Below are positions 24,881 to 55,001 of a DNA stretch of 64,000 nt, piece by piece. The stretch lies in the NCBI GenBank assembly GCA_965207735.1, contig OZ242296.1:4544001-4608000 (forward strand). The letters are read 5' to 3'. How positions within the stretch are numbered: position 1 is the first letter of the stretch; the number at the start of each line of letters is the position of its first letter. Under the pieces are notes generated by a model, which did no database searches, had not been told where the DNA came from, and was given only the letters and a program-made list of their open reading frames with translations. The position numbers were made by a program, and so were the translations under genes. The DNA comes from Candidatus Versatilivorator sp. (GTDB lineage: Bacteria > Acidobacteriota > Terriglobia > Versatilivoradales > Versatilivoraceae).

Positions 24881-25545
24881 AAGGCAGTGCAGAGCTCACA
24901 CGACCCCGGGCTTCCACCCGGGGCTACACGAGACCGCAGCTACGCTGCTCTAAAAGGATGGCTTGCAGGTGAGGTTTCCTCGGACGACCCACGCCAACCG
25001 CCGCATACGCGGCTCTCCCCTAACCCACGACACTGCCGGTGGATAGGATTTTTCAAATGATTGTCTCCGGGCGTCCGCTCCCCAATTCCGCAAAACGTCG
25101 TTCAAGAAACTCAAGTATCACTCCCCCCTTGAGGAGGAGTCGCAGAAGCCGAGCCGAATGGCGAAGGCTGTTGCGGTGGGGGGCCAACGCGGCGCCTGCG
25201 AGTGGGAGCGCCGTATATAGGGGACGAAGCTCTTAATCCGCCGCTGGGGCGGCGCAGCACTCACACGACCCCGGGCTTCCACCCGGGGCTACCCTGAGCC
25301 GCAGCTACGCTGCTCTATAAGGATGGCTTGCAGGCGACCTTGTCTCAGGCATCCCATGCCAACCGCCGCATTCGCTGCTCTCCCCTAACCCACAACACTG
25401 CCAGGGGGTAAGAATTTTTCGGTTCATTATCCCCGCGCGCTAGCCAGAGGGTCAATGCGAGCCGCGAAGCGGCGGCAGCAGGTAGCCGTGGGCGTCAGCC
25501 CATGGAAACGGGTAGCGAATCTCCCGAGCCGCGTAGGCGGCGACT
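24881..25545. repeat. cluster of host REP-like repeats between the two islands
   Basis: Two ~190-bp copies with the ccccgggcttccacccgggg palindrome (24881-25055, 25220-25420) and a gagccgcgaagcggcggcagcaggtagccgtgggcgt unit (25460-25544) also found at 61152-61240. Confidence 0.8.
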
Positions 25546-25799
25546 ACATCAGAAAACTTGTAACTGCTCATTATAATAGACTTATTGTGGTTTGTCCTGT
25601 TGTAATCCCCTCATTATATCCCTCTATTTGAACGGGAATCCACTGGACTTTTCGGGACGTTGGTGGACAGGTCTTACGATGTTGCAACCCCCGAGACTCT
25701 GCCTCCGAGACCGTCGAGCCGGGTGGTAGGCTGCCCTTGGGTTCGGATCGGAGATATCGGGTTGTGAGCATCCTCCAGCCTTGCCCTTCTCGGCCTCTG

Positions 25800-26720
25800 G
25801 CCATCTGTAGTCTTCTGTTCTTCGAGGGCTTCATAGACGAGGGCGCGCAGCCAGGAGCCGACGTTGAGGTGCCGCTGGATGACGAGGCACTGGAAACCTT
25901 GACGGGTTTCGGGAGAGACATGGATATGAAGCGGTACACGGTGCAACATAGAGACACACAACAACACATGGAGCGACAAGCAGGTTACAACGCTACACAA
26001 CGCTACATGGAGACACACGCAGCCACCGTGAGCGCGAAAAAGTGCTCGATGGCCTTCCCGCCAGGGATCACTGTGGTGGGAGCGACCCCGGAAAGGGGAG
26101 GGGAGGTGGTGGATTTTGGCGTGCACCACCTAACCCTGCCCGGTGCCGCACCAGCGGCAAAAATGAGGGGGTCGCTCCCTCCACTTCCTGCCCCTCCTGT
26201 GCGACGCCACGACGTGCCATGCGAGGCGGGGACGCGCGGCGCCGGCACCGCACTGCGCTTTACCGTAGAGGAGTCGGGGAATCCGTGCCAACGCGGGTCC
26301 AATAAGGATTTCCAAGCACAACCTGGACCACAACGGCGAGGGCTACACCCTCCGAGAGTGGAGCGTTGGAGTGGTCAAAAGCGTGAGCCACTTGGTGCGC
26401 CACCTGTGTGAGCCACCCCCCATCGGAAAGGTGGCCACCCATACGACGCCACGTCCTTGACCCCCCGAGGCGGAAAACGTCAATCATTTCACGGCCGTTG
26501 GAAGCCGGGCTTTCCTGCTCCTATTGGACGATATTCTCCATGATGACATCGAGGCCGCCATGGCGTTCGACGGTGTCCCAACCGGCATCAGCGATGGCTT
26601 GCCGCAGCCCGGTCGCGTCTGTCTTGGCCGCTGCCGGGTCTCGGGTTGTCCAGGCCTGGAGAACGCGCTGGGTGAGTCGAGGTGTTGCTGGCCCCAAGCG
26701 ACCGCAGAGACTTCGACAGT
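25800..26720 (-). pseudogene. decayed RHH + oriT-like region + relaxase 3' end
   Basis: High similarity to 21830-22600 (LNVGSWLRALV; AIADAGWDTVERHGGL; IDVFRLGGSR). Confidence 0.7.
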
Positions 26721-26828
26721 CCGGCTTGCCTTGCAATCGGCTGCTTGAATATAGTGGGTCTTATCCGTTCAAGAAATCGGGGGCGGTACAGCCTGTCGCG
26801 GCAGCGATATCTACGACCTAATGCCGAG

Positions 26829-51982: not shown

Positions 51983-52753
51983 ATGTTTAAAAATACCTGT
52001 AAGATCGTTGCTGCTTCCATGGTGCCCATCGTGCTGTTGTATAGGGACGACAAGGGCAGGGTGGGCTTCACTATAGGAGCAGGGATGATCCTCAATGAGG
52101 ACGGTTGGGTGCTCACCGCGGCTCACATCGTGGAGCAAATTCGGAGCGTGGTGGATTCTGGCATCCTGGAGACATCTAACAAGAAAAAACCCATCGTTGT
52201 TACCCAATATAGCTTTCTAATTGGGCACAGAAACTCGCCTTTTGAGCGTGGGATTTCCCGAGTCGACACTGATATAGGAGTTCTCAAGGTCCAGGATTTT
52301 GTTCCCGAAAGTGATCGTGTGTATCCGCGTCTGAGATCCACAGGAGTCGAGCCGGGAGAGCTTCTCTGCCGGATTGGTTTTCCCTTTGTAGCTGATATCC
52401 AATCCATTCAAATAGCATGGAGCGAAGAGGATGGATTTACCGCTCCCAATTTACTTCCAGTTCCTGCTTTCGTCAACGAAGCATTGGTGAGCCGGATCCT
52501 TCGTATTCATTCGGATGGTGATGAGTGGATCGAAACCAGCTCCCCGGGTCTTCCAGGGCAAAGCGGGGGACCTTTGGCTGATGAGGACGGCCTAATTTGT
52601 GGTATCCAGGTCAACACTCACCTTTACCCGTTGGGATTCCCAAACAAATGGCGCAATCAGGTGTTGAATGTTGGTAGGGCTGTTGAGATCAAGACTGTAA
52701 GACAGTTCCTTGACGCCAACAGGATTAAGTATTACATTGAATCCAGGAGGTAG
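51983..52753 (+). CDS. trypsin-like serine protease
   Basis: VLTAAH (His), TDIG (Asp), PGQSGGP (Ser); no signal peptide. Confidence 0.88.
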   Translation: MFKNTCKIVAASMVPIVLLYRDDKGRVGFTIGAGMILNEDGWVLTAAHIVEQIRSVVDSGILETSNKKKPIVVTQYSFLIGHRNSPFERGISRVDTDIGVLKVQDFVPESDRVYPRLRSTGVEPGELLCRIGFPFVADIQSIQIAWSEEDGFTAPNLLPVPAFVNEALVSRILRIHSDGDEWIETSSPGLPGQSGGPLADEDGLICGIQVNTHLYPLGFPNKWRNQVLNVGRAVEIKTVRQFLDANRIKYYIESRR

Positions 52754-53411
52754 AATCATGAGGTCCGACACGTTCATGACTTTTTCTGCGGGCAAGCCCT
52801 CTCCTGTTCGCGTTATCGACGATCCGTCGAAACCGCGGTGGGACGATCCCTTGACCCCTCCCCGGCAACGCGATGAGCAGGATCGTGCGCCGCAATCAGC
52901 AACTCCCAAGAAACAAGATCGTCAAAAGGCAAAGAGCACAAGCTAATCTGCTCCACCCTCACCCTGAGAAGCAATACCAAGCGGAGAGCCTCACCGCTCT
53001 CCGCTTTTGATTGTAAACACCCCCTAGCTATTCTCTCAGAGGCACACACACTTTGTTTTGGTTGTTTGGGTCCCACTCGGGCACGCAAGGTCCCGATCCA
53101 TACTCAAACTCCCCTCCACAGGGGGGGAGAACGGGACTTCCCAACCTGAGCAGTTCCGAGCAGACAGTGGCCTGCCGATGGTGGAAGAGAGGATTTCACC
53201 GGAAGCGGTGGTTGCTCTTCTCCCGCTCCTGTGGAACGCGACGCAGGGCATGTTTCGGATTATTCTTAAAGCCCGCGGCCGATCCGGTGGAGCCTGTGGG
53301 TGGGAAATGTCTCTCCAAGGAGGTGTGGGAAATCATTCCGTAAGTTCGTAACGCCGGGATTCGGAACCACGGGGATTTCCACACCTCCCGCAGGATCCAT
53401 GGGCCACTCAA

Positions 53412-54641
53412 CTATAGGGCCTCCAGATCCTCCCCCGACCCCTGGTCCAGGTAACGCGCCCAGTCGTCCATCAACGTGCGCCGGCGCTCGAACAGGTCGG
53501 AGCGAGCATAGGCCGCCTCGACCCGGTTGCGGACCACATGCGCCAGGGCCGCCTCGATCACCTCCCGGGGATGGTCGGTCTCTTCGGCCGCCCAGTCCCG
53601 GAAGCTGGACCTGAACCCGTGCGGCACGGCTGCAATCCCCTGCTCGCGGACCAGCCACCGCAGCTCCTTGTCACTGAGCGGCTTCCCTTGCCCACGGGTG
53701 AACACCAGAGGACCGGCTCCTTTGCCCAGGGTCCCTGCCGCCTCGAGAATCTCCAGGGCACGGCCACAAAGCGGCACCCGGTGTTGGCGGTTCGCCTTCA
53801 TCCGACTGGCCGGGACGGTCCATACACCAGCGTCCCGATCGATCTCCTCCCACTCGGCCCAGCGCACCTCGCTCCACCTGGCCGCCGTCAACACCAGGAA
53901 CTCGAAGGCCAGCTTGGCCACCTCGGGCGCCGTCGCTGCCTGCACCGTCCGGATGGCCGCAGCCACCTCCCGATGCGGCATGGCCCGCATGTGCTCGGTA
54001 ACGTCATGTTGGGGACCCAGGACCGGGCCGATCCTGTCGCAGGGGTTGTCGATTCTGTACTCCATTGCTACGGCCCATTCCAGGACCGCACGCAGGCGCT
54101 GGCGCACCCGCCGGGCGCTGGAGGCCTTCCGGTGCCAGATAGGGGTGAGGATCTCAAGCAGATCGGCGCTGGTGACCTCTGAGACCGGCATCTTGCCGAT
54201 GCGGGGGAAGGCGTACCGCCTCAGGCTCGCCATCCACTCCCGGTGGTGACGCCGGCCGCGCCAGCCGTCCCGCTTCTGTTCCAGCACACGTGAGGCGGCT
54301 TCAGCGAAGGTAGGAATGCCCTCGGTGCGGCGCTTCTCGGCAAGAGGATCTCCGCCCACACGGGCCAACTTGCGGTTAGCCAGCGCTTTCTCCCGAGCCT
54401 CGGCCAGGGAGACCAGGGCGAGGCTGCCGAGACCGAGCTCCCGGCGACGGCCACGGACGACGAGGCGTTGAATCCAACTGCGGGTTCCGCTGGGCTGGAC
54501 GAAGAGGTACAATCCGTTTCCATCGGCGTATCTTCCGGGCGGAGCGGAGCGCAGGAAAGCGGCCGAGAGGGCGTTGCTGGGGTGACGGCCGATGGGTTTG
54601 GTTTTAGGTCGGACAGGTGCGAAGTCCGTTACAGTATCCAT
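53412..54641 (-). CDS. P4-type tyrosine integrase
   Basis: Intact R-HxxR-H-Y residues; highly similar to 23488-24720. Confidence 0.95.
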   Translation of the reverse strand: MDTVTDFAPVRPKTKPIGRHPSNALSAAFLRSAPPGRYADGNGLYLFVQPSGTRSWIQRLVVRGRRRELGLGSLALVSLAEAREKALANRKLARVGGDPLAEKRRTEGIPTFAEAASRVLEQKRDGWRGRRHHREWMASLRRYAFPRIGKMPVSEVTSADLLEILTPIWHRKASSARRVRQRLRAVLEWAVAMEYRIDNPCDRIGPVLGPQHDVTEHMRAMPHREVAAAIRTVQAATAPEVAKLAFEFLVLTAARWSEVRWAEWEEIDRDAGVWTVPASRMKANRQHRVPLCGRALEILEAAGTLGKGAGPLVFTRGQGKPLSDKELRWLVREQGIAAVPHGFRSSFRDWAAEETDHPREVIEAALAHVVRNRVEAAYARSDLFERRRTLMDDWARYLDQGSGEDLEAL

Positions 54642-55001
54642 CCCCCCATTATATGGGGGATGGCAGTGGATTGCAAGGGATGTTGGTGGCAAGACAAGCC
54701 ACGGCAGGACTTATATAAGACACTCATAAATAAGACAGTTATAGACACCACTGGACGGCTCTAGACATCACTGGATTTTGTAGGGACGTTGCGGCGGCGG
54801 CAGCATTTCACGGCACCGGTTCAAGCCGTGCGAGCATTATCGTCCTGCGCTTCCGCGCTGGCGTTAAGTTGCCCACACGCCCGCGCAACGTCAGGCACGG
54901 TATCGATTCCTACGGGCACGACTCGCCCCTCCTACACCTCCAAGGGTGTGGACAGCATCGGGCGGTTGCGCTACATTGTGACTCACACTTGGAGGTTTGC
55001 G

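Follow-up and report, generated by a model that had tools for sequence, protein, structure and literature searches.

What does the integrase of a genomic island recognize when the island does not end at a tRNA gene, and is the orientation of insertion free? This question is raised by a 64,000-nucleotide stretch of the chromosome of a sponge-associated Candidatus Versatilivorator sp. (contig OZ242296.1; hereinafter the window), which carries two integrase-bearing islands, denoted 1 and 2. Island 2, 29.25 kb in length, lies within one copy of a dispersed repetitive extragenic palindrome (REP). We consider it highly probable that it inserted at the fixed GGCGGCG core of this repeat, most likely by lambda-type recombination mediated by its own tyrosine integrase.

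Boundaries of island 2 and the empty site

The flanks of island 2 read gagccgcgtaGGCGGCGac on the left and GGCGGCGgcagca on the right, with the hairpin at 25527-25542 and the 7-bp cores in the positions assigned to them by an earlier sequence-only reading of this locus:

25460-25542, plus strand: left portion of the type-A REP used as target, consisting of hairpin 1 (25460-25474), a GTAG-footed hairpin (25482-25505) and the split hairpin 2 (25527-25542)
25536-25542, plus strand: left 7-bp core GGCGGCG, the predicted crossover region
25543-25690, plus strand: conserved left end; the direct repeats of TGGAC type at 25644-25668 are predicted arm sites of the integrase
53412-54641, minus strand: intact P4-type tyrosine integrase of 409 amino acids (PF13356, PF22022, PF00589)
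54625-54792, plus strand: conserved right end with TAGAC/TGGAC repeats of about 11-nt period at 54742-54787, predicted arm sites
54793-54805, plus strand: right 7-bp core GGCGGCG (54793-54799) and the displaced REP tail GCAGCA
61153-61240, plus strand: intact, unoccupied type-A REP

The GC content is 58% inside the island and 65% in the flanks. The integrase retains the complete catalytic set (R255, K282, H341, R344, H368 and Y378), and its nearest matches in the PDB are domains named 'phage integrase' and 'CP4-like integrase'. The rejoined flanks yield the 23-mer GAGCCGCGTAGGCGGCGGCAGCA, of which there are 13 intact occurrences in the genome, including the reference copy, here confirmed at 61218-61240, to which the sequence-only reading had compared it.

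The empty site predicted by that reading, joining 25535 to 54793, is present in a near-identical strain. The aligned part of a contig from run X17 (4249 nt, depth 12.7) begins exactly at 54793, with 13 differences over 54793-57000, and the 30 loose letters ahead of this point correspond to window positions 25506-25535, so that the same REP is intact. Because this contig joins 25535 directly to 54793, the alternative boundary at the structured segment 54785-54892 is excluded. The comparison covered seven of the 21 listed runs; the contigs of X18 and X19 do not cover the junction, and a contig of X15/X16, with zero differences and possibly from the source sample itself, reaches only 23 nt into island 2 and was not counted. 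Five of the 13 relatives in the genus carry no island between the SSF and PSD genes, which in the window lie left of island 1 and right of island 2, respectively; there the two genes are neighbors, which shows that both islands are accessory. None of these five has a type-A REP there, and no precise empty site was found among the GTDB relatives. In two relatives (L037 and L041), an island-1-type end, inverted and with the core variant ATTCGCG, lies just upstream of the same PSD gene, so the gap at this gene is a recurrent landing area.

Sister elements share the base and direction of insertion

The genome holds dozens of related integrase matches. The clade that includes the island 2 integrase (clade A) accounts for 16 left and 15 right ends, all of which are located at the same base of AGCCGCG(T/A)A-GGCGGCG-RCAGCA (hyphens delimit the core), in one orientation throughout. 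These ends form 15 paired elements of 2.06 to 44.4 kb (227 kb together), with identical cores in 13; one clade-A left end, at 3351770, has no matching right end nearby. Adding clades B and C brings the number of paired elements to 22, which span 356.8 kb, or 6.8% of the chromosome. The tyrosine integrase is the only gene common to the elements; they do not share a DDE or DEDD transposase that would drive insertion. There is no tRNA gene in the window, and none of the 22 paired elements ends within 3 kb of one.

The placement of the clade-A ends in the REP is not due to chance: the genome contains 4575 GGCGGCG heptamers on both strands, 84 of them within the type-A REP, and all 16 left ends fall among these 84. 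By comparison, none of the 47 hairpins that are one base shorter and carry AGCGGCG is occupied (Fisher p = 6e-4), a difference that fits a required 7-bp match. Across the genus, 48 of 62 element pairs have identical cores, eight differ at one base and six at two to four. Given the fixed base and direction in the sister ends and the intact REP in the near-identical strain, the integrase likely uses a many-copy repeat rather than a tRNA gene.

The target repeat and its transposases

The REP hairpin has 149 matches in the genome, dispersed and short palindromic, with GTAG at the foot of the hairpin at 25482-25505; TTAG and ATAG variants are found as well. The segments 25460-25474 and 25482-25505 together match Rfam family RF01687 (Acido-Lenti-1). 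Among the 29 genus loci scanned, the type-A REP occurs as inverted copies on both sides of a Y1 transposase gene in four (L206-L209), and a second, type-B REP flanks a related Y1 gene in another four (L211, L212, L213 and L217). The single Y1 gene of the present genome is flanked, as judged by eye, by another repeat rather than by REP A or B, and no cognate transposase gene of the target REP was found in this genome. Both Y1 proteins compared with family models score above the cut-off of NF033573 (IS200/IS605 type), whereas the RAYT model NF047646 gives 29.9 bits against a cut-off of 80 for one and no match for the other; all eight Y1 proteins inspected contain the Y---Q--HH motif of subclass 1.2. 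What makes the target a REP is its copy number, the GTAG foot and the REPtron-like layout, whereas the transposases fall outside the RAYT class. The Y1 transposases with such REPtron-like flanks (L206-L213, L217) are of the subclass 1.2 type. Furthermore, because the Acido-Lenti-1 'sRNA' matches REPs that flank Y1 genes, this Rfam family may be a DNA repeat rather than an RNA gene. Other dispersed hairpin repeats in the window (D5, D8 and D11, at 2834-3141, 7896-8265 and 25075-25192) are unrelated to the target REP.

Orientation follows the integrase clade

Island 1 offers the direct comparison:

10020-24877, plus strand: island 1, with cores CTACGCG at 10020-10026 and 24871-24877; type-B REP on the opposite strand
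23488-24720, minus strand: clade-B integrase of island 1, 81% identical to that of island 2

The 16-mer AGCCGCGTAGGCGGCG is, as the sequence-only reading noted, the reverse complement of the island 1 target, but the flanking sequences differ between the two islands. That reading also described similar core-to-arm spacings, and with the 7-bp cores in register these are equal to within one base: the distance from the core start to TTGTAAC is 22 nt in each island, the first TGGAC lies at 108 and 109 nt, and the right-arm motifs are at 41, 31 and 21 nt in both. The TGGAC-type repeats, predicted arm sites, are conserved across the ends at a fixed distance from the core. In island 2, the core falls on the 3' arm of the hairpin, whereas in island 1 it takes up the 5' arm together with the loop, on the opposite strand; the two are not mirror images. 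More generally, the clade-B ends differ from those of clade A in core and register and, for the most part, in REP family, the type-B repeat having only the 16-bp hairpin in common with type A.

A census of ends in 14 genomes included 112 left ends (of 165 matches) and 87 right ends (of 112). Among the left ends, 46 are in the hairpin in the forward and 18 in the reverse orientation, and 48 are elsewhere. None of the 18 reverse ends matches the type-A flank pattern, although one of them (G007) is A-like by eye, the other 17 being non-A; conversely, A-type flanks surround all 40 right ends whose core is A-type. Core variants such as TGCGGCG and ATTCGCG follow local REP variants, with the register unchanged. 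In a quick integrase tree (n = 70, with 13 short integrases left out), target class requires 8 label changes compared to 33.2 for shuffled labels, a clustering that is inflated by kinship; B forms a single branch (97), and 23 of the 25 A rows fall in one branch (100). The target class tracks the clade of the integrase, each clade keeps to one orientation, and islands 1 and 2 clearly belong to separate clades.

Mechanism and alternative explanations

The targeting of REP put forward by the sequence-only reading is strongly supported by the X17 empty site, the 15 paired sister elements and the REP copies around Y1 genes in relatives, since all clade-A ends share one base, one REP family and one orientation. 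The orientation freedom that it proposed, with one integrase family recognizing the hairpin as a structure and inserting either way, is not supported. Both islands do split the identical 16-mer on opposite strands, and the G007 end lies in an A-like flank. However, the 16 clade-A ends all point one way, the cores GGCGGCG and CTACGCG, used by different clades, are not symmetrical about the hairpin axis, and both reverse insertions in this genome are in type-B copies even though 46 copies of the 16-mer are A-flanked and only 12 are B-flanked. We therefore regard a single two-way integrase as highly improbable; the two islands, differing in clade, core and repeat family, are separately fixed solutions on a shared hairpin.

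The choice of the same hairpin by two independent clades, along with its predicted folding as DNA (about -7 kcal/mol), would be compatible with recognition of the REP in the form of an extruded hairpin of one strand, the way attC is read by integron integrases, such that structure also contributes to selection. This is highly improbable considering that sister clades use non-palindromic targets (a gene relic and integrase codons), that the 7-bp duplication and the arm-type repeats at both ends are as in double-strand recombination, and that a one-base change in the core that keeps the stem leaves all 47 hairpins empty. Still less credible, and in our assessment extremely improbable, is that the elements left the REP copies behind as scars or brought them along as parts of themselves, or that the copies spread by homologous recombination between REPs rather than by repeated site-specific integration. 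Several elements share near-identical flanks past the REP, and some of these might have been duplicated along with a larger repeat, but spacers and flanks are unique at most occupied sites, the REP flanks Y1 transposase genes in relatives, the joint is at one base in all copies, and the empty site restores a single REP.

Under lambda-type recombination by the island's own integrase, excision would release a circle carrying attP and restore the REP. Integration would require the 7-bp match and, next to it, a minimum of one G-Y-Y-G-Y-like half site; for the type-A REP, this half site would be RCAGC to the right of the core and would set the orientation, while the hairpin dyad itself would not be the crossover axis. 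With about 84 matching REP copies located between genes, a copy number typical of insertion sequences (ISs) could be reached at little cost. The sister clades have moved to other multicopy targets, namely the type-B REP, a relic repeat of GxxExxY genes, the non-coding module X described below and the integrase gene. In the weakest step of this scheme, the relaxase, which most copies lack although they carry an oriT-like hairpin, would be supplied in trans. REPs would gain a role as landing pads for large cargo, to which these symbionts would owe much of their accessory genome. For multicopy insertion, an integrase that uses many sites could become a tool.

Several observations weigh against this scheme. 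The empty site comes from one contig of one run, in which a site that was never occupied is indistinguishable from an excised one. The magnesium-transport cargo of island 2 has no second site beyond a 71-72% match in one of the 13 relatives, so that movement of island 2 itself is not demonstrated. No attP junction was detected in this genome, five relatives, JGI metagenomes, IMG/VR or the loose ends of run contigs, where, admittedly, rare forms are dropped from contigs. In the elements, no excisionase was detected, the single AlpA match being outside them. Ends were paired by proximity, and the mismatched cores in 14 of the 62 genus pairs could reflect mutation, mispaired ends or mismatch tolerance. 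In the integrase tree, two of the 25 A-target integrases lie outside the main A clade, and eight rows have no class.

Cargo, module X and the oriT-like hairpin

The remaining features of island 2 are the following:

26051-26578, plus strand: module X, non-coding and present in every one of the 22 paired elements; partial copies at 28295-28660 (minus), 37160-37296, 45128-45315 (minus) and 48891-49312 (minus)
28691-28860, plus strand: oriT-like inverted repeat (module Z), present upstream of mobC-relaxase genes as well
28861-29112, minus strand: integrase 3' remnant, one of five, the others at about 42385-42597, 44927-45132, 48566-48751 and 49386-49766
29119-36504, minus strand: cargo genes for an outer-membrane efflux protein, CNNM/CorC, MgtE, MgtE_N, two MscS-type proteins and an ECF sigma factor
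39011-39973, plus strand: cargo gene for a retron-like reverse transcriptase, best matches below NCBIfam cut-offs
40274-41995, minus strand: IS1634-family transposase
45471-47463, plus strand: group II intron (reverse transcriptase/maturase at 45945-47312), inserted in a second oriT-like inverted repeat (45360-45470, minus)

Module X (about 520 bp, with internal inverted repeats) has 69 matches inside the 22 elements and nine outside, often as two opposed copies around cargo, and no Rfam match above the cut-off. Five non-autonomous derivatives (1087298-1089357, 4406556-4408615, 5151300-5153359, 3236931-3239318 and 4505259-4512880), three of which are exactly 2060 bp, share an internal deletion of the integrase (from about amino acid 58 to 287) and keep the ends, module X and the oriT-like hairpin. 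A small RHH-type gene beside the left end was considered and rejected: its motif is found in only five places and is not conserved. Among the 57 open reading frames of the window that were scanned, none encodes a primase, AlpA or packaging functions, the traits of P4-like satellites and phage-inducible chromosomal islands. The cargo of island 1 (10504-20247) looks defensive, with a type III restriction-modification pair and a PLD-domain protein, plus a DDE transposase.

Of the 21 copies of the oriT-like hairpin in the genome, 20 are distributed over 17 of the 22 paired elements. The hairpin also precedes mobC and a PF03432 relaxase gene at seven of the 13 relaxase loci examined (15 were found). 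The only mobC-linked relaxase of this genome, at 1121667, is encoded in a nested sister element. Island 2 itself has no relaxase and, although no search was aimed at mating-pore genes, no pore genes either. Because the hairpin is common to the elements and the mobC-relaxase loci, we somewhat favor its being, judging by position, an origin of transfer (oriT) served by a relaxase in trans, so that transfer would likely occur by hitchhiking. The inverted repeat that holds the group II intron (45471-47463) is cut at the same base in two other elements (near 1135571 and 4261106), which suggests intron homing into the oriT-like hairpin.

The wider integrase family

Clade C (core TGCACRG) splits a repeat that resembles the start of GxxExxY/PDDEXK_3 genes, a likeness in frame judged by eye, and in more distant relatives the ends fall within module X or an integrase gene. 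A distant sister element at 1111399-1124585 ends in the start of module X and carries mobC and a relaxase gene, and sister-clade ends at 3871645-3885283 and 1534558 lie where integrase genes encode FEFLVLT and RRRELG. Related integrases with 79-95% identity come from records titled Ca. Versatilivorator or Terriglobia, and those with 63-75% identity come from Gemmatimonadota, Vicinamibacterales and others. In 49 such loci, with weakly scored ends assigned by eye, the targets include a GTGACGGTGAC repeat (11), a CGTCCCC hairpin repeat (7) and an integrase gene (4). The habitat-labelled runs are mostly sponge metagenomes.

The scenario that we find somewhat better than even is that a P4-type integrase lineage in sponge symbionts abandoned single-copy sites entirely and radiated over multicopy targets by swaps of the 7-bp core, with the arm geometry fixed, such that cargo islands came to act like IS elements in a layered system of host repeat, element and hyperparasite served by a rare relaxase-bearing member. 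With a similar, modest degree of confidence, the targets of this radiation would comprise two families of REP, the relic of a nuclease gene, repeats in coding sequence of other phyla, and the integrase genes and cis modules of relatives. If true, 80%-identical integrases that differ in their targets would constitute a natural series. With the differing targets of such close relatives mapped, how integrases switch sites becomes directly testable.

Comparison with known systems

The usual assumption for tyrosine-integrase islands is a single site per genome, in many cases a tRNA gene. At least one site-mining pipeline (PMC12884075) filters out sites with multicopy cores, and REP-type islands would therefore be under-counted. 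Island 2 is a member of the P4-type islands by its domains, ends and empty site, although not a tRNA-targeted one: compared with the P4/CP4-57-type islands at tRNA and tmRNA genes, as catalogued by Islander (PMC4383910), it has the same domain set (Arm-DNA-bind_3, Phage_int_M and Phage_integrase) and catalytic residues, the same end placement of the integrase, a short duplicated core, arm-type repeats and cargo. It differs in targeting an intergenic REP of which there are dozens of copies, in a duplication of only 7 bp, and in that 15 copies of the clade reside in one chromosome.

The target itself resembles the REPs and REPtrons with TnpA-Y1 transposases of subclass 1.2 (Quentin et al. 2018, PMC6006769) in its dispersed intergenic copies, their inverted arrangement around a Y1 gene and the Y---Q--HH motif; GTAG repeats (PMC3733652) share the GTAG-footed hairpins, and Acido-Lenti-1 (PMC2864571) matches part of the REP. 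The difference is that the transposases here score as IS200/IS605 type and fall below the RAYT cut-off. The iOriT elements (10.64898/2026.01.13.699239) are integrative elements that have an oriT and lack a relaxase. Island 2 is similar in its integrase, the lack of a relaxase and a hairpin shared with relaxase-bearing elements; it differs in that its putative oriT is assigned by position only and that the relaxase carrier is a sister element whose integrase belongs to the same family.

In its targeting, island 2 parallels the ISs that target REPs (IS1397, IS621, ISKpn1, ISPa11, ISPpu9, ISPpu10 and ISPsy8; PMC1525189, see also PMC12288879 and 10.64898/2026.03.19.712850). These ISs have IS3- or IS110-type transposases and are 1-2 kb long, in contrast to the tyrosine integrase, att sites and 2-44 kb length of the elements described here. 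In the papers searched, which included few subscription articles, we found REP targeting for IS elements only and for no tyrosine integrase. The mycobacterial prophage phiRv1 integrates into multicopy REP13E12 repeats via a serine integrase. It is alike in its site-specific integration into a multicopy repeat and unlike in its serine integrase, the long repeat and its prophage nature.

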